From contig NW_027266343.1 of NCBI RefSeq assembly GCF_022045235.1, forward strand, positions 55,676,001 through 55,740,000: a stretch of 64,000 bases of DNA, written 5' to 3'. Origin of the DNA: Haliotis cracherodii. Lineage: Eukaryota. The translations under genes were made by a program, and so were the position numbers. A model generated the notes under the pieces. That model worked only from the letters and a program-made list of their open reading frames with translations. It was not told the DNA's origin and searched no databases. Below, in pieces: positions 13,276 to 61,958 of this stretch (within the stretch, counting starts at the first letter, position 1; each line of letters opens with the position of its first letter).

Positions 13276-13415
13276 TGGGACGGTTGGGTAGCCTTGTGGT
13301 TAAAGTGTCAGTTTGTCATTCCGAAGGCCAGGGTTTGATTCCTGAAATGGGTTCATGTGTGTCACCCATGTGACATGAATATTGCTAAAAGCGGTTTAAA
13401 AACTCACTCACTCAC
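13276..13415 (+). mobile_element. SINE family A, internally deleted
   Basis: Head and tail present; TSD tgtattcatgat. Confidence 0.8.
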
Positions 13416-15222
13416 TGTATTGATGATGTGACATATCACTCACTCACTGTATTGATGATGAGACATATCACTCACTCACTGTATTCATGATGTGACATAT
13501 CACTCTCACAGTATTCATGATGTGACATATCACTCCTCACTGTATTGATGATGAGACATATCACTCACTCACTGTATTCATGATGTGACATATCACTCAC
13601 TCACTGTATTCATGATGTGACATATCACTCACTCACAGTATTCATGATGTGACATATCACTTCTCACAGTATTGATGATGAGACATATCACTCACTCACT
13701 GTATTCATGATGTGACATATCACTCACTCACTGTATTCATGATGTGACATATCACTCTCACAGTATTCATGATGTGACATCACTCTCACAGTATTCATGA
13801 TGTGACATCACTCTCACAGTATTGATGATGTGACATATCACTCCTCACAGTATTGATGTGACATATCACTCACTCACTGAATTCATGATGTGACATATCA
13901 CTCACTCACAGAATTCATGATGTGACATATCACTCTCACAGTATTCATGATGAGACATATCACTCACTCACAGTATTGATGATGAGACATATCACTCACT
14001 CACAGAATTCATGATGTGACATATCACTCACTCACTGTATTCATGATGTGACATATCACTCACTCACTGTGTTAATGATGTGACATATCACTCACTCACA
14101 GAATTCATGATGTGACATATCACTCTCACAGTATTCATGATGTGACATATCACTCACTCACTGTGTTGATGATGTGACATATCACACTCACTGTGTTGAT
14201 GATGTGACATCACTCTCAAATTATTCATGATGTGACATATCACTCACTCACTGTATTCATGATGTGACATATCACTCACTCACTGTATTCATGATGTGAC
14301 ATATCACTCACTCACAGAATTCATGATGTGACTTATCACTCTCACAGTATTCATGATGTGACATATCACTCCTCACTGTGTTGATGATGTGACATCACTC
14401 TCACAGTATTCATGATGTGACATATCACTCACTCACTGTATTCATGATGTGACATATCACTCATTCACAGAATTCATGATGTGACATATCACTCTCACAG
14501 TATTCATGATGTGACATATCACTCACTCACTGTGTTGATGATGTGACATATCACACTCACTGTGTTGATGATGTGACATATCACTCTCAAATTATTCATG
14601 ATGTGACATATCACTCACTCACTGTATTCATGATGTGACATATCACTCACTCACTGTATTCATGATGTGACATCACTCACTCACAGTATTCATGATGTGA
14701 CATATCACTCACTCACTGTATTCATGATGTGACATATCACTCACTCACAGAATTCATGATGTGACATATCACTCTCACAGTATTCATGATGTGACATATC
14801 ACTCACTCACTGTGTTGATGATGTGACATCACTCTCACAGTAATTATGATGAGACATATCACTCACTCACTGTATTTATGATGTGACATATCACACACTC
14901 ACTGTGTTCATGATGTGACATCACTCTCAAATTATTCATGATGTGACATATCACTCACTCACTGTTGATGATGTGACATCACTCTCACAGTATTTATGAT
15001 GTGACATATCACTCACTCACTGTATTTATGATGTGACATATCACACACTCACTGTGTTCATGATGTGACATCACTCTCACAGTATTCATGATGTGACATA
15101 TCACTCACTTACTGTGTTGATGATGTGACATCACTCTCACAGTATTTATGATGTGACATATCACTCACTCACTGTATTCATGATGTGACATCACTCTCAG
15201 AGTATTCATGATGTGACATATC
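13405..15222. repeat. About 27-33 bp minisatellite (cactcactcactgtattcatgatgtgacatat)
   Basis: 1.8-kb array starting at a SINE A tail. Confidence 0.97.
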
Positions 15223-26249: not shown

Positions 26250-28115
26250 GGCTTGGGGTGTTTTTTGAAGAGATGGATGGGTTTGGGATGTTGTTTGAAG
26301 AGATGGGTGGGTTTGGGATGTTGTTTGAAGAGATGGGTGGGGGTGTGATGTTGTTTGAAGAGATGGGTGGGGGTGTGATGTTGTTTGAAGAGATGGGTGG
26401 ATTTGGGATGTTGTTTGAAGAGATGGGTCGCTGTGGGATGTTGTTTGAAGAGATGGGTGAGGGTGGGGTGTTGTTTGAAGAGATGGGAGGGGGTGGGATG
26501 TTGTTCGAAGATATGTGTGGATTTGGGATGTTGTTTGAAGAGATGGGTGGGTGTGGGATGTTGTTTGAAGAGATGGGTGGGTGTGGGATGTTGTTTGAAG
26601 AGGTGGGTGGGGGTTGGGTGTTGTTTGAAGAGATGGGTGGGTGTGGGATGTTGTTTGAAGAGGTGGGTGAGATGGGATGTTGTTTGAAGAGATGGGTGGG
26701 GGTGGGATGTTGTTTGAAGAGATGGGTGGGGGTGGGATGTTGTTTCAAGAGATGGGTGGGGGTTGGGTGTTGTTTGAAGAGATGGGTCGGGGTGGGATGT
26801 TGTTTGAAGATATCGGTGGATTTGGGATGTTGTTTGAAGAGATTGTTGGGGGTGGGGTGTTGTTTGAAGAGATGGGTGGGGGTGGGATGTTGTTTGAAGA
26901 GATGGGAGGGGGTGGGATGTTGTTCGAAGATATGTGTGGATTTGGGATGTTTGAAGAGATGGGTAGGGGTGGGATGTTGTTTGAAGATATGGGTGGATTT
27001 GGGATGTTGTTTGAAGAGATTGTTGGGGATGGGATGTTGTTTGAAGAGATGGGTGGGGATGGGATGTTGTTTGAAGAGATGGGTGGGGATGGGATGTTGT
27101 TTGAGGAGATGGGTGGGGGTGGGGTGTTGTTTGAAGAGATCGGTTGGTTTAGTATGTTGTTTGAAGAGATGGGTGGGGTTGGATGTTGTTTGAAGAGATG
27201 GGTTGGGGGTGTGATGTTGTTTGAAGAGATGGGTGGGGGTGGAATGTTGTTTGAAGAGATTGGTGGGGGTGTGATGTTGTTTGAAGAGATGGGTAGGGGT
27301 GGGATGTTGTTTCAAGAGATGGGTGTGGGTGGGATGTTGTTCGAAGATATGGGTGGGGGTGGAATGTTGTTTGAAGAGATGGGTGGGGGTGGAATGTTGT
27401 TTGAAGAGATGGGTGGGGGTGGAATGTTGTTTGAAGAGATGGATGGGGATGTGATGTTGTTTGAAGAGATGGGTAGGGGTGTGATGTTGTTTGAAGAGAT
27501 GGATGGGGGTGGGATGTTGTTTGAAGAGATGGGTAGGGGTGTGATGTTGTTTGAAGAGATTGATGGGGGTGTGATGTTGTTTGAAGAGATGGGTGGGGGT
27601 TGGATGTTGTTTGGAGAGATGGGTAGGGGTGTGATGTTGTTTGAAGAGATGGATGGGGGTGTGATGTTGTTTGAAGAGATGGGTGGGGTGTGATGTTGTT
27701 TGAAGAGATGGATGGGGGTGTGATGTTGTTTGAAGAGATGGGTGGGGGTGGAATGTTGTTTGAAGAGATGGGTGGGGGTGGAATGTTGTTTGAAGAGATG
27801 GGTGGGGGTGGAATGTTGTTTGAAGAGATGGATGGGGATGTGATGTTGTTTGAAGAGATGGGTAGGGGTGTGATGTTGTTTGAAGAGATGGATGGGGGTG
27901 GGATGTTGTTTGAAGAGATGGGTAGGGGTGTGATGTTGTTTGAAGAGATGGATGGGGGTGTGATGTTGTTCGAAGATATGGGTAGGGGTGTGATGTTGTT
28001 TGAAGAGATGGGCAGGGGGTGGGATGTTGTTTGAGGAGATTGGTGGAGGTGTTGGGGTTTTGTTTGAGGAGATTGATAGGGTTGGAGTGTTTGAAGAGAT
28101 GGGTGGGGGTAGGTT
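26250..28115. repeat. 30-bp G/T-rich minisatellite (gatgttgtttgaagagatgggtgggggtgg)
   Basis: About 60 copies; generates the long frame-shifting ORFs. Confidence 0.97.
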
Positions 28116-47962: not shown

Positions 47963-48023
47963 ATATCAAGAGAGGAAGCCATTAACCTTTCACCTACCTC
48001 ACCAGCCAGTCTTGCAGTTAAAG
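47963..48023 (+). CDS. FAM53: FAM53-family protein, probable small internal coding exon (ISREEAINLSPTSPASLAVK-G)
   Basis: Acceptor gttgtttgtttgcag|, donor AAG|GTAATC; 61 nt, phase 0 in and phase 1 out, which joins the flanking exons in frame; no recognisable homology on its own. Confidence 0.65.
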
Positions 48024-48039
48024 GTAATCGTTTGGACGA

Positions 48040-48825
48040 TGGTGGAGGGGGACAGGGGAGGAGCGGGACAGGGGATGGAGGAGGGGGCAGGGGTTTGGGG
48101 AGGGGGTGGAGGGGACAGGGGGTGGAAGAGGGGACAGGGGGTGGAGGAGGGGGCAGGGGTTTGGGGAGGGGGTGGAGGGGACAGGGGGTGGAAGAGGGGA
48201 CAGGGGGTGGAGGAGGGGACAGGGGTTTGGGGAGGGGGTGGAGGGGACAGGGGGTGGAAGAGGGGACAGGGGGTGGAGGAGGGGACAGGGATGGGAAAGG
48301 GGATGGAAGAGGGGACAGGGGGTGGAGGAGGGGACAGGGGTGGGGGAGGGGATGGAGGAGGGGGCAGGGGTGGGGAAGGGGATAGAGGGCACAGGGGGTA
48401 GTAGAGGGGGTTGGGGGACAGGATGGGGGTGTAGGAGGGTGTAGGGGACAGGGGTGGGGGAGGGGATAGAGGATGGGGGAGGGGATGAAGGAGGGGACAG
48501 GGGATGGAGGAGGGGTGGGGAGGGGACAGGGGTGGGGGAGGGGATGGAGGAGGGGACAGGTGTGGGGAAGGGGATAGAGGGGACAGGGGGTAGTAGAGGG
48601 GGTTGGGGGACAGGATGGGGGTGGAGGAGGGTGTAGGGGAGGAACAGGGTTGGGGGAGAAGACGAGGTGGAGGGGGAGTGGGTTGTGGAGGCAGGACGGG
48701 GGTTGGGAGAGGGGGACAGGGTTGTGGAGAAGGGATGTGGGGTTGGAGAAGGGGATGGTTTGGAGGCGGCAGACGGGGGCTAGGAGAGGGGGCTGTGGGG
48801 GTGGAGGAGGCAGGACAGGGGATTG
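48040..48825. repeat. G-rich low-complexity tandem tract
   Basis: ggaggaggggacagggggt units. Confidence 0.93.
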
Positions 48826-49196
48826 GGCGACAAGTTGACTGTCAGTGTGATCCTATACAAAGAGTGCGACATGCCGGTGTCATTATGTTTCAAGTGTGGG
48901 AGGCGTTAAGAAAATAAAATTTAAAGTTCAAACGTTCTTCCTGTTGATGTTTCAGAAGTAAAGATGATATTGCTGGAAAAGTGTTTCTCCAATACACAGC
49001 ATAAACAAACGTCTTCTGGGAAAATGAAAGTGTAGCTGAAAGTGCACCTAACGACTCGAGTGCCAAGTTTCTTTGGATTTGATCATTTAGAATTACAAGC
49101 AAACTTGTTTGGCAGTGAAGCAATCTTTTTTGCAAAGTGTAATGTCTTTTGTCAGATGTGGAATTTGCCAAATGATTTTAAAAATTGCTTTTGTAG

Positions 49197-49987
49197 GGAA
49201 GAATGTATGGGCATTGCCTGTCCCCCCCTCACAGATGCCACCGCCCTCTGCAGGAGGGAAGGGGAAGGGAGACAACTCTGGCAGCAGACATGGCAAAAGT
49301 TGTGATAAGCACTCGTCTGTGGTAACATGTCGCCACAAGAACCCGCTACACAAATGTATTCTCTGTGATACGAACTCCGGCATCGCACCACCGAAGAAAA
49401 AACACTGCCGATCTCTCTCAGTGCCGGTTGACTCCATGACATCATCTCCATGGCAACCAGATGGAACCAAACTTTGGCGACCAATAGCTGTGATTCCGTT
49501 GACAAACAATAATGTAGATCAGCAGAACAGGAACATAACGTCCCGTGTTCCTGAGTTCAAGGCCACATGTAGAAATGTGACAAACTTTACCCGGTTTGTG
49601 TCGTCACCATTGAGTATGGACAGTGGTCATTTCACGACATCAGACTTTCAGACTCCGCCTGGTTCGCCTGTACCAAGGCCAGCATCTGCTCTTAGTGATT
49701 TTTCCCAGAGTTCATTTGGAGCACCGTGGCTCGAACACAGCCCATTACGGAATAACAGATTTGAAATTCTCCAGAACCGAAGTCTTTCTTATGAGGAACA
49801 GATATCACTTGGAGCTGGATCTACGCCGTGTATGTCCGAACATCTAGGCTCAAACCCGTCCTCGCCGTACCGACACAAAATACCAAGGTGTCGCTCTCAG
49901 CCGTGTGTTCTCCATGATAGACGTTACGCCAAGAAACGACGACGTGAAGATTGCAGACCAACCCTTAATTTTCAAAAAATGACTGAG
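49197..49987 (+). CDS. FAM53: FAM53-family protein, large central coding exon
   Basis: FAM53 motifs APPKKKHCRSLSVP, WQPDGTKLWRPI, TPPGSPVPRPASA, RSLS, RCRSQPCVL, KKRRREDCRPTLNFQKM; acceptor ttgcttttgtag| (phase 1); donor GAG|GTTAGT (phase 0); gene continues beyond the recognisable exons. Confidence 0.92.
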
Positions 49988-50130
49988 GTTAGTAGTTATA
50001 TTCGGAATCTGCTTGTTTTTATTTTCCTGGATATTCTTTAATTAATAATTATTTCCTCTACCTGCATCTATTCTAGATATTTGTGTTACAAATGTAAAGA
50101 TTTAACGGGTAGGTCAGGGGAATGTGAACT

Positions 50131-50376
50131 AAGTAGAGACAATTTGTGGATAACAACTTCTTTATTTACTGTGAAGGCGACGTTTCGGTATATATCCTTA
50201 CACCGTTGTCAAACAAATCTGTTGATGGTGTTGATTGCCACATCTCCATGTTGATGATGGATGAATTGTGTGACAGGTATTACTCAAAAGTTGACGGATT
50301 ACAAAGTAGACACAATTTATGGAGAACAACTTCTTTATTTCCTGTGGAGGCGATGTTTCGGTAAAGATCCTTACAA
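50131..50376 (-). mobile_element. Penelope-like terminal-repeat relic: two direct repeats (about 173 bp apart) with hammerhead-like motif and AATAAA
   Basis: Units start at 50131 and 50304; minus strand reads TTGACAA-C-GGTGTA-AGGATA-TATACC-GAAACGTC-GCCTTCACAGTAAATAAA. Confidence 0.6.
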
Positions 50377-50628
50377 CCCACTTCTTTCAGTGACCGAATT
50401 AACTGCCTGCCCACCTGCCCGTGGCTAGTAACTTTTCTGTCGGGCTGCATGAAATTTTACTCCGCCTGCCCGACTGTCTGGCAGATAATTTTTGAGACTA
50501 CTTATATTTTCAGTTTTATTATGACCAAACATATGCAAAAAGAAGGTCTTCAAGAAGGGGAGCATGATTGGTACCCATGGGGATGCCTACTTCTTGTCTA
50601 AATATCCTACCCTCAAATTGTACATGGT

Positions 50629-52380
50629 CAGGGTTAGAATTTAATTTTTTTAGGCACAAGCAAATTTTTGCTTGTGGTTTTAAAAGATACAAGCAAAATC
50701 AGAAATCAACAAGCAATTATTTTTTCTCAACTCAAAACTTCAAAATATATATCACAAGATTGCATGATCATGATTTATGCTGCATATAAATAATGACTGA
50801 TTATGCATGTTATGACATTCAGATAACAAAGTGATTAAATTACACTCATAAAACATTTATCAAAGAAAATATCTGCATGTTTGTAAAACATTTTTATACA
50901 CCATTTCAAGTTCCAATCCTATTGTTTATAAAATATGTTATGTTTATCACATTATTTAGATAATGCATTTACAACTTAATTATGTTCATTGTAAATAAAG
51001 AAAATGTAAGCTAACACATTCATAACGTCCAGATTAAGGACCAAGGAAGATTTCATAAAAAACGCAATTGGAAAAATATTTTAAAATGAATTGTAAATAG
51101 ATTTGGTATATATGCCATCACCCATTTCCTGATAACAGTGGCTGTTCGTTCAGTAACATGAACAGATACCTCCGTTTTCGAATAACACGGTCGTCGAAGA
51201 CTGCCATGTGACACATCGCTAGAAAGCTTCGATAAAATTGGTTTCTAATGACTCTGTCTTTGCCAAAATCTGCTACAAGGTTCGTGACTGGTCAAATCTG
51301 AGCACGTGACCTAAGCCGGCCAATCAAATTACATCTATGGTCTGATAAATTTCAGAATTTGACGAAAGACTTTTGTTAAATCGTGTTATTCTGAACGTTT
51401 TAAGCAGGAAATTGCGATCTATATTAAAAATATGGAACTTCATAGATGTATTGTGCCAGGTTAAGAGCTGTGACAAAGATTTTTCATGCTTATATTTTTG
51501 CATTAAACATCGTCTCCGAACCGAGGAAATTGAGATGACGAAAGCCGAGATGTCATTTGACTTACATTACACGCGATCGCACGAAAAGATGGAAATAAGA
51601 ACTTAAATGTAAGTTTGACAACTTTAAAATTTTATCTATTACTTTGTATAATATATAGCTTGAAACGTCTTTACATTGCTTTGACATGTTCGATGTGGAC
51701 CCGTTGTGGAAAAGTGTTTTCGAGATTTTATTTTCAATAACATTGCGGGAAATAGTGAATATTTTTTTAATTTATCGATAAGAAATGATAAATTGAAATG
51801 GAATACGTATTTCAGACATTGTGAAATGTGATAGATTAAATAAATGAATCATAGGACAGGTAGGTTAATAAAATTATATATTATTTTGACGTGACAACGG
51901 CTTCGTCAGTCTGAACCGGCCTACGGGTGTCGTCTGGGATTCGAGGATGGCATGTCATCTTAAGATAAGAAACGACCTTGGGTCAATTGAATAAATTACC
52001 GATGACAGTTTTTACGGCATTTGATTGGTGTCCCGAAAATAGACATACGTCATTTCCATAATATTAATCCTCGTGCTATATGTTCATTGGTCAAAAAGAG
52101 CTCGGAATAGTCCGCGTTCACAAAAGTTGAAAAGAAGTAAAAGTTTTTCCTGGAAACGCGAATTGGGAGGTAACTCTAAATTGGAGGTAAACAAATCAAG
52201 GAAAATCTTCGCGAAATCAAATGTTATCACAGTGTATTTAGAAATTTAGGTATTTCTCAACCAATTGTTGAACGGAAAAAAGCAAGACGCAAAAAAATTT
52301 GTCTTTATTTTGAATCATAGACGCAAAATCATAAATTAAGATGCATTTTGCGTCTTAGCGTCCATTAATTTTGAACCCTG
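50629..52380. mobile_element. hAT-like non-autonomous DNA transposon (1.75 kb)
   Basis: TIR cagggttagaatttaat / attaattttgaaccctg; subterminal acaagcaa and agacgcaa repeats; imperfect TSD; no transposase ORF. Confidence 0.8.
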
Positions 52381-52383
52381 CAT

Positions 52384-52533
52384 GGGGTGGTCGGGTAGCC
52401 ACGTGGTTAAAGCGTTTCCTCGTCATGCTAAAGACCCGGGTTTGATTCCCGACATGGGTACAATGTGTGACATTGCTGGAATATTGCTAAAAGCGGCGGT
52501 AAACCATACTCACTCACTCACTCACTCACTCTC
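52384..52533 (+). mobile_element. SINE family A, internally deleted
   Basis: TSD ctcaaattgtacat at 50612 and 52534, separated by the later DNA transposon insertion. Confidence 0.88.
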
Positions 52534-58295: not shown

Positions 58296-61200
58296 TGTTA
58301 CTACTGTATGTCTATATTCAATGTGGGAGGTACCAGTCGTAACACTAGGGTCACCTTGTACAACTGTAACTACTGTATGTCTATATTCAATGTGGGAGGT
58401 ACCAGTCGTAACACTAAGGTCACCATGTACAACTGTTACTACTGTATGTCTATATTCAGTGTGGGAGGTACCAGTCGTAACACTAGGGTCACCTTGTACA
58501 ACTGTTACTACTGTATGTCTATATTCAGTGTGGGAGGTACCAGTCGTAACACTAGGGTCACCTTGTACAACTGTTACTACTGTATGTCTATATTCAGTGT
58601 GGGAGGTACCAGTCGTAACACTAGGGTCACCATGTACAACTGTTACTACTGTATGTCTATATTCAGTGTGGGAGGTACCAGTCGTAACACTAGGGTCACC
58701 TTGTACAACTGTAACTACTGTATGTCTATATTCAGTGTGGGAGGTACCAGTCGTAACACTAGGGTCACCTTGTACAACTGTTACTACTGTTACTACTGTA
58801 TGTCTATATTCAGTGTGGGAGGTACCAGTCGTAACACTAGGGTCACCTTGTACAACTGTTACTACTGTTACTACTGTATGTCTATATTCAGTGTGGGAGG
58901 TACCAGTCGTAACACTAGCGTCACCATGTACAACTGTTACTACTGTTACTACTGTATGTCTATATTCAATGTGGGAGGTACCAGTCGTAACACTAGGGTC
59001 ACCTTGTACAACTGTTACTACTGTATGTCTATATTCAGTGTGGGAGGTACCAGTCGTAACACTAGGGTCACCTTGTACAACTGTTACTACTGTCTGTCTA
59101 TATTCAGTGTGGGAGGTACCAGTCGTAACACTAGGGTCACCTTGTACAACTGTTACTACTGTATGTCTATATTCAGTGTGGGAGGTACCAGTCGTAACAC
59201 TAGGGTCACCTTGTACAACTGTTACTACTGTATGTCTATATTCAGTGTGGGAGGTACCAGTCGTAACACTAGGGTCACCATGTACAACTGTTACTACTGT
59301 ATGTCTATATTCAGTGTGGGAGGTACCAGTCGTAACACTAGGGTCACCTTGTACAACTGTAACTACTGTATGTCTATATTCAGTGTGGGAGGTACCAGTC
59401 GTAACACTAGGGTCACCTTGTACAACTGTTACTACTGTTACTACTGTATGTCTATATTCAGTGTGGGAGGTACCAGTCGTAACACTAGGGTCACCTTGTA
59501 CAACTGTTACTACTGTTACTACTGTATGTCTATATTCAGTGTGGGAGGTACCAGTCGTAACACTAGCGTCACCATGTACAACTGTTACTACTGTTACTAC
59601 TGTATGTCTATATTCAATGTGGGAGGTACCAGTCGTAACACTAGGGTCACCTTGTACAACTGTTACTACTGTATGTCTATATTCAGTGTGGGAGGTACCA
59701 GTCGTAACACTAGGGTCACCTTGTACAACTGTTACTACTGTCTGTCTATATTCAGTGTGGGAGGTACCAGTCGTAACACTAGGGTCACCTTGTACAACTG
59801 TTACTACTGTATGTCTATATTCAGTGTGGGAGGTACCAGTCGTAACACTAGGGTCACCTTGTACAACTGTAACTACTGTATGTCTATATTCAGTGTGGGA
59901 GGTACCAGTCGTAACACTAGCGTCACCTTGTACAACTGTAACTACTGTATGTATATATTCAATGTGGGAGGTACCAGTCGTAACACTAGGGTCACCTTGT
60001 ACAACTGTTACTACTGTATGTCTATATTCAGTGTGGGAGGTACCAGTCGTAACACTAGGGTCACCTTGTACAACTGTTACTACTGTATGTCTATATTCAA
60101 TGTGGGAGGTACCAGTCGTAACACTATGGTTGTCTTGTACAACTGTTACTACTGTATGTCTATATTCAATGTGGGAGGTACCAGTCCTAACACTAGCGTC
60201 ACCTTGTACAACTGTAACTACTGTATGTCTATATTCAATGTGGGAGGTACCAGTCGTAACACTAGGGTCACCTTATACAACTGTTACTACTGTATGTATA
60301 TATTCAGTGTGGGAGGTACCAGTCGTAACACTAGGGTCACCTTGTACAACTGTAACTACTGTATGTCTATATTCAGTGTGGGAGGTACCAGTCGTAACAC
60401 TAGCGTCACCTTGTACAACTGTAACTACTGTATGTCTATATTCAATGTGGGAGGTACCAGTCGTAACACTAGCGTCACCTTGTACAACCGTTACTACTGC
60501 ATGTCTATATTCAGTGTGAGGTACCAGTCGTAACACTAGGGTCACCTTGTACAACTGTTACTACTGTATGTCTATATTCAATGTGGGAGGTACCAGTCGT
60601 AACACTAGCGTCACCTTGTACAACTGTAACTACTGTATGTCTATATTCAGTGTGGGAGGTACCAGTCGTAACACTAGGGTTGTCTTGTACAACTGTTACT
60701 ACTGTATGTCTATATTCAATGTGGGAGGTACCAGTCGTAACACTAGCGTCACCTTGTACAACTGTTACTACTGTATGTCTATATTCAATGTGGGAGGTAC
60801 CAGTCGTAACACTAGCGTCACCTTGTACAACTGTTACTACTGTATGTCTATATTCAGTGTGGGAGGTACCAGTCGTAACACAAGGGTCACCTTGTACAAC
60901 TGTTACTACTGTATGTCTATATTCAATGTGGGAGGTACCAGTCGTAACACTAGCGTCACCTTGTACAACTGTAACTACTGTATGTCTATATTCAATGTGG
61001 GAGGTACCAGTCGTAACACTAGCTTCACCTTGTACAACTGTAACTACTGTATGTATATATTCAATGTGGGAGGTACCAGTCGTAACACTAGGGTCACCTT
61101 GTACAACTGTAACTACTGTATGTATATATTCAGTGTGAGGTACCAGTCGTAACACTAGGGTCACCTTGTACAACTGTTACTACTGTTACTACTGTATGTC

Positions 61201-61958
61201 TATATTCAGTGTGGGAGGTACCAGTCGTAACACTAGCGTCACCTTGTACAACTGTTACTACTGTATGTCTATATTCAATGTGGGAGGTACCAGTCGTAAC
61301 ACTAGCGTCACCTTGTACAACTGTTACTACTGTATGTCTATATTCAGTGTGTGAGGTACCAGTCGTAACACTAGGGTCACCTTGTACAACTGTTACTACT
61401 GTATGTCTATATTCAATGTGGGAGGTACCAGTCGTAACACTAGCGTCACCTTGTACAACTGTTACTACTGTATGTCTATATTCAATGTGGGAGGTACCAG
61501 TCGTAACACTAGCGTCACCTTGTACAACTGTTACTACTGTATGTTTATATTCAATGTGGGAGGTACCAGTCGTAACACTGGGGTCACCTTGTACAACTGT
61601 TACTACTGTATGTCTATATTCAGTGTGTGAGGTACCAGTCGTAACACTAGGGTCACCTTGTACAACTGTTACTACTGTATGTCTATATTCAATGTGGGAG
61701 GTACCAGTCGTAACACTAGGGTCACCTTGTACAACTGTTACTACTGTATGTCTATATTCAGTGTGGGAGGTACCAGTCGTAACACTAGGGTCACCTTGTA
61801 CAACTGTTACTACTGTATGTCTATATTCAATGTGGGAGGTACCAGTCGTAACACTAGGGTCACCTTGTACAACTGTTACTACTGTTACTACTGTATGTCT
61901 ATATTCAATGTGGGAGGTACCAGTCGTAACACTGGGGTCACCTTGTACAACTGTTACC
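58296..61958. repeat. 69-bp satellite, about 53 copies
   Basis: tgtatgtctatattcagtgtgggaggtaccagtcgtaacactagggtcaccttgtacaactgttactac; some units have an extra 9 bp. Confidence 0.98.

Follow-up and report, generated by a model that had tools for sequence, protein, structure and literature searches.

Whether a short hammerhead-like motif, located on the minus strand beside an exon in the genome of Haliotis cracherodii, represents a genuine ribozyme, what kind of element carried it there, and whether this particular copy could still cut are the questions raised by this locus, which lies in a window (i.e., the whole stretch of DNA that was analysed) of 64,000 nucleotides.

Motif, host intron and anatomy of the insertion

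The motif at 50212-50179 is composed of the successive minus-strand segments TTGACAA, C, GGTGTA, AGGATA, TATACC, GAA, ACGT and C and, as a previous sequence-only reading had claimed, is followed by an AATAAA hexamer at 50166-50161. The predicted cut of this core (copy 1) is after 50179, and its architecture is as described in PMC4209133. A truncated copy, said to lie about 173 bp away without the UUGACAA half and with ACGU changed to ACAU, was indeed found in the form of a direct repeat at 50301-50375, 173 bp off copy 1, with 88% identity over 75 nt; in copy 2 the first box is missing, as is the larger part of stem II's 5' arm. A loopless palindromic helix III together with an NUH cut site is present in copy 1 but not in copy 2, and the window copy has no partner for a cis dimer. 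The features of the locus are as follows:

49195..49987, plus strand: host FAM53-family exon, from the Pfam match and the contig block (context, outside the element)
50131..50218, minus strand: downstream terminal repeat (pLTR) copy, stopping at about the short 3' end of the family
50161..50166, minus strand: AATAAA hexamer; AATAAA and ATTAAA alternate here among subfamilies
50177..50178, minus strand: 3' arm (G, C) of stem I, which has 2 bp
50179..50212, minus strand: minimal hammerhead core, copy 1 (U3 U4 G5 A6 C7 A8 A9, then an additional base, stem II, G12 A13 A14, loopless palindromic ACGU stem III, C17)
50213..50218, minus strand: short 5' leader with the 5' arm of stem I (G50214, U50213; G, C in the family)
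50219..50280, minus strand: first 20 codons of the open reading frame (ORF), with the start codon ATG changed to ATA
50264..50303, minus strand: 'tail' of ~40 nt between two preferred 3' ends, straddling the start codon
50281..50375, minus strand: upstream terminal repeat copy, its 5' end cut within stem II
50375-50352, minus strand: partial hammerhead in the upstream repeat, with ACAT for ACGT; this repeat also holds an AATAAA at 50339-50334

The host gene belongs to the FAM53 family (Pfam FAM53 E 2e-26). Positions 49195-49987 form one block within 2.2-kb records among the contigs of three presumed RNA runs, in which 49989-50109 has no cover, this interval being covered in a fourth, larger run; such contigs cannot reveal transcript starts, ends or strand, and the run type RNA is presumed. 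The repeat is therefore intronic, starting 144 nt into the FAM53 intron next after the exon and antisense to the host, in agreement with the earlier placement of the motif antisense just past the big FAM53 exon. A contig under another organism label spans the left edge of the element copy, and thus the insertion is not private to the Haliotis cracherodii assembly. Its bridging across labels, together with its position 144 nt from a splice donor, could suggest that the copy has been co-opted to regulate FAM53; however, its antisense orientation, its divergence of about 10-13% from siblings with changes in stems I and II, and an expectation of intronic copies at the density of this family (about one copy per few hundred kb) render this very improbable.

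Other repeats occur in the surrounding DNA. Two further dispersed repeats adjoin the 5' side of the element at window positions 50388-50627, with matches at four other genomic loci (L029, L015, L040 and L196). A very high-copy repeat with a tRNA-like head and an (ACTC)n end, probably a SINE, occupies 52390-52500 with enormous contig depth, while long minisatellite arrays are located at 58296-61957, 26254-28110 and 13404-15222, with periods of 69, 30 and 32 bp, respectively.

On the minus strand, the insertion reads in the order of a repeat cut within stem II (at 50375), hexamer, tail, 20 ORF codons and second repeat. The downstream repeat begins 6 nt ahead of the core, ends at 50131 and matches its sibling L012 at 80/89 bases; a second comparison of the window copy with L012 gives 97/112. 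The junction at 50219/50218 falls on a CAG common to codons 20-21 and the leader, and about 2.7 kb of the element is missing; no ORF remnant is present in the window beyond the 20 codons, and inspection by eye revealed no target duplication surrounding the copy. Of the proposed Penelope-type tandem repeat, the Penelope assignment holds and the tandem array does not, the locus being instead an internally deleted series of terminal repeat, ORF start and terminal repeat.

Junctions between ORF start and repeat recur in the genome, as 8/16 independent sites (from 30 of 56 ORF-start loci fetched, with 15 loci forming one array) jump to -9..-2 before the core, and these eight leave the ORF at differing points, none of them at a GT. 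Such varied junction points without GT argue for template switching or microhomology deletion rather than splicing or an amplified 173-bp monomer. The 173-bp unit would, in the latter case, be the monomer of a retrozyme-like non-autonomous family spreading via small circular RNAs. Its period is within the small-repeat range, one locus (L003) has an identical junction and another (L018) a nearly identical one, and a 2026 preprint argues for a derivation of animal retrozymes from Penelope terminal repeats (bioRxiv 10.64898/2026.07.22.740005). The non-LTR retrozymes of that preprint likewise contain a short repeat, related to those of Penelope, that carries a type I hammerhead, but they are defined by at least two consecutive complete-motif units, whereas the window locus has one complete and one half motif and no amplified monomer. 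The ORF-start 24-mer (<=2 mismatches) occurs at only 56 genome places as opposed to thousands of repeat-only copies, junctions vary between copies, and the sole long array found, C23:58766276-58768749 (L233-L244, L255-L257), with 15 near-identical 175-bp tandem units of element tail and ORF start, is without a hammerhead; a retrozyme origin is thus very unlikely.

Splicing is very unlikely as well. It would treat the junction as the product of a removed ORF intron, with the CAG before the core as acceptor, as in Drosophila virilis Penelope, where helix I is immediately preceded by the end of an intron (PMC4209133). Family A does exhibit a pyrimidine run and a CAG ending 7 nt ahead of the core, yet sister families have no CAG at that place, the AG or G is usually retained in copies, and the upstream side of the junction ranges over about 40 nt, where the ORF of neither L093 nor L081 has a GT. 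In the favored template-switching scenario, reverse transcription would have begun at the short 3' end, run to the 5' end of the RNA, switched at a short microhomology to a different template, at codon 20-21, and then halted inside stem II; this course of events would give the 173-bp period.

Family size and coding siblings

A search of Rfam returned no hammerhead at E<=10 within 48000-52500, and by itself the 34-mer shows only a modest folding advantage over shuffled sequences (z -1.9, 8/200); a single copy alone therefore proves little. Folding of single copies gave no signal except for stem II, and the pairing probability of stem I was <=0.05 in single-strand folds of the window copy and of a young sibling alike, so that any activity is predicted to need help.

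The proposal of a multicopy family was substantiated by the genome itself. The first DNA search yielded 1,151 first-look candidates, 40 of which were scored. An exact pattern of the 34-nt core with two degenerate letters has 862 genome matches, as compared to 0 for the reversed control, and the motif is consequently not a product of chance; a 21-mer located 15 nt past the predicted cut has 2,936 exact matches, again with 0 for its reversed control.

Four inverted pairs, 1-3 kb apart, were taken, three of which (L062, L063 and L064) contain element ORF sequence. Locus L064 possesses a 594-codon frame with a reverse transcriptase domain (RVT_1 E 5e-11), ending about 205 nt ahead of the core; an inverted partner accompanies it, as does a target duplication of 12 bp. 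The C-terminus of this frame resembles group I intron endonucleases (TIGR01453 E 1.1e-4, below the curated cut-off; PHROG E 0.011), and Pfam returned no GIY-YIG call for it. Residues which we take to be those of the GIY-YIG and CCHH motifs were identified by eye in the sibling ORF, in which no Zn-finger-like linker between reverse transcriptase and endonuclease was seen by eye. At L095, the core is followed 105 nt later by the ORF start codon, and a single ORF with reverse transcriptase is found in siblings L064, L092, L103 and L104.

The closest named proteins are those of Haliotis, with 64-91% identity over the matched part, while a PDB search returned only distant reverse transcriptases, telomerase among them (E 0.027). 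No intact full-length element was present among the 20 reverse transcriptase matches, of 42, that were fetched. Terminal repeats, an inverted 5'-truncated partner and a 30-40 bp tail are all present in the family. Of note, in inverted pairs (L063, L064, L066-L068) the two arms differ, one stopping at the long 3' end and its partner at the short one, and target duplications of ~10-13 bp flank them (by eye). The siblings in which an ORF of reverse transcriptase and GIY-YIG-like type adjoins the core thus provide the expected link between the motif and Penelope ORFs.

Covariation within the hammerhead

Both core boxes, YUGANRA and GAAA, are present, the 3-8 pair is of Watson-Crick type, and nucleotide H of the cut site varies between C, U and A among families. 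With the other boxes fixed in the pattern, pair 3-8 occurs genome-wide as U-A in 3,627 copies and as C-G in 1,112, as compared to 126 for U-G and 148 for C-A (controls 0-2). The mismatched U-G and C-A copies among the matches listed resemble single mutants of the paired families. Pair 3-8 shows two states between families, and not thousands of independent events, because the copies are not independent.

An ungapped alignment was assembled from the window copy and 16 hand-picked rows spanning about nine families. Within these 17 rows 87.2% of cells are paired and 8/11 pairs exhibit double changes, for a covariation score of 0.397 versus 0.216 for shuffled alignments (0/500) and at most 0.182 for slid controls, on the understanding that the rows share ancestry, that the invariant boxes were built into the search patterns and that several families are represented by one mutated copy.

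In stem I, pair 1 is formed in 17/17 rows and pair 2 in 16/17, with G-C to A-U changes, i.e., the stem is conserved and covaries between families, but is only 2 bp long. A third pair is formed in 7/17 rows and further pairs in 2-6/17, and a longer stem I of up to 6 bp accordingly failed; an extension of stem I across the 3' hairpin was dropped by eye, this hairpin being missing in sister families. The 2-bp stem I, which had been regarded as a defect of the locus, is instead normal in all families aligned, and the window copy only weakens its C-G to U-G, being the only row of the 17 with U-G at pair 1.

Helix II begins with G10.1-C11.1 after one unpaired base, and 5/7 of its pairs show double changes, the other two being invariant. 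The best fit across families is 5 bp, one bulged base, 2 bp and a 3-nt loop (pair 21-27 in 14/17 rows); the 6-bp stem with a 6-nt loop that had been proposed fits less well (pair 20-27 in 7/17 rows). In the window copy, pair 4 of stem II is G-U and the closing G-C is gone. The designation of the motif as a U3-A8 hammerhead variant is upheld by the covariation of pair 3-8, stem II and the 2-bp stem I between families.

Sister families with C3-G8 were also observed (L208-L227); their cores are equally long, the AAAGAAGTT-type block recurs downstream of them, and the last nucleotide of the cut triplet is U, C or A. An array at C1:67136436-67137649, mostly with 46-bp spacing, carries a complete C3-G8 minimal hammerhead core in each unit (17 matches listed) and would be a better candidate for cis-dimer cleavage than the window locus. 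Similar short arrays are found at C1:54257526-54257865 and at C23:67496274-67496666, the latter with 72-bp spacing and U3-G8.

The window copy is likely inert, since it lies antisense to the host pre-mRNA, is missing both the predicted promoter and any intact partner in cis, and no longer forms some pairs of stems I and II. Taken together, the size of the family, the reverse transcriptase and GIY-YIG-like ORFs of its siblings and the covarying hammerhead bear out the view of the locus as a Penelope-type relic. It is very probably a decayed 245-bp Penelope-like insertion, carrying a U3-A8 minimal hammerhead for which cleavage is predicted only in dimeric form or with help from the protein of the element, in a copy that is likely inert.

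Copy ends, predicted promoter and related elements

The ends of 98 copies, from the first 100 places listed for the 21-mer, were mapped by alignment to one young copy; the positions are uncertain by a few bases, and inverted pairs are not independent, their partners being counted separately. At the 3' side, 35 copies end at a short and 47 at a long site ~38 nt apart, with 6 between, 8 before and 2 after them. The 5' ends are scattered, with a pile-up at -10..-2 from U3 that includes 25/49 copies reaching that far, a rate of 7.2% per base as compared to 1.3% downstream and 2.0% upstream; 17 of these 25 ends adjoin an inverted element copy. By comparison, 1/80 5' ends lies <=2 nt from the predicted cut, the anchor being past the cut, so that copies whose 3' side ends at the cut are invisible to this mapping.

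A TATA-like run is located at -39..-32 in 13/20 printed rows from four families (seven rows are without it, two of them because they stop short of this position). Most of the 20 rows, across four families with differing spacer, also have an initiator-like TCA at -8 or -6. These runs, which we take to be promoter motifs, were assigned with loose patterns and no shuffle control. They are consistent with a TATA/initiator promoter in the repeat, with a transcription start 6-8 nt ahead of the core, and the end distribution suggests that uncut RNA is the usual insertion template. A literature search found no publication on a TATA/initiator pair directly before the hammerhead core of Penelope-like elements. 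In D. virilis the promoter is described in PMC2377424 as TATA-less with a start about 120 nt upstream, unlike the elements predicted directly before the abalone core.

The RNA of the family would, by this scheme, start a few bases before the motif, which would need a second copy for stem III and probably the element's protein for folding. Protein help has been shown for the anole element (PMC11167929) and is suggested by the low dimer activity in PMC4209133. It is conceivable, and we put it forward tentatively, that a start only 6-8 bases before the core holds stem I at 2 bp and that the ribozyme would clip a capped leader of ~40 nt off the element mRNA, as a switch removing RNA from translation and copying, with only uncut RNA being inserted.

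The hammerhead shape may otherwise be kept for another purpose, for instance as a signal used in binding or folding by the protein of the element, and cut seldom or never in vivo. This is unlikely, though clearly less so than splicing or a retrozyme origin, and it bears on the activity of the family, not on the identity of the locus. The cut site is without a 5'-end pile-up, anole insertion in vitro needs no cleavage with no reads ending at the cut site (PMC11167929), and activity in vitro is low (PMC4209133). Against this, the catalytic boxes are common to thousands of copies across families, pair 3-8, which is a catalytic requirement in hammerheads, covaries, and the anole motif cuts once protein is added (PMC11167929).

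Minimal U3-A8 hammerheads in Penelope-like elements were described in 2014 by Cervera and De la Pena (PMC4209133), and a literature search on U3-A8 hammerheads found nothing beyond this paper. The Cercyon elements of Schistosoma mansoni reported there share with the abalone family the U3-A8 core, the extra base between 9 and 10.1, G10.1-C11.1, the loopless palindromic helix III and the location in terminal repeats, and their motifs are likewise mostly single and dispersed, with pairs on opposite strands; their helix I is, however, 4-5 bp as opposed to 2 bp in abalone, where helix II is bulged. A 2-bp helix I and a bulged helix II are shared with D. virilis Penelope (PMC4209133). This element, too, has a short repeat that lies at the ORF start and terminates the copies as well, and partial tandem and inverted insertions; it differs in a 2-nt helix III insertion and in an intron ending at helix I, whereas the abalone family has no conserved acceptor.

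Similarly, the Poseidon element PAc of Anolis carolinensis (Frangieh et al. 2024, PMC11167929) combines a reverse transcriptase with a C-terminal endonuclease, has two preferred 3' ends that delimit a tail of 30-40 nt and shows no sign of cut RNA as template, but it is of C3-G8 type with its ORF start in stem II, as compared to a start codon ~105 nt past the core in abalone. Tails of 30-40 bp are reported in PMC11167929 and PMC8557442, the former linking the tail to two reverse-transcription start sites.

The window locus adds one more ordinary case to a published kind of motif and, as one worn copy among thousands, is of little weight in itself. The family, on the other hand, lends itself to the study of how hammerheads serve Penelope-like elements, as one genome offers young copies together with sister families, U3-A8 and C3-G8, of equal length, and its insertion ends are readable as a record of which RNA was copied.
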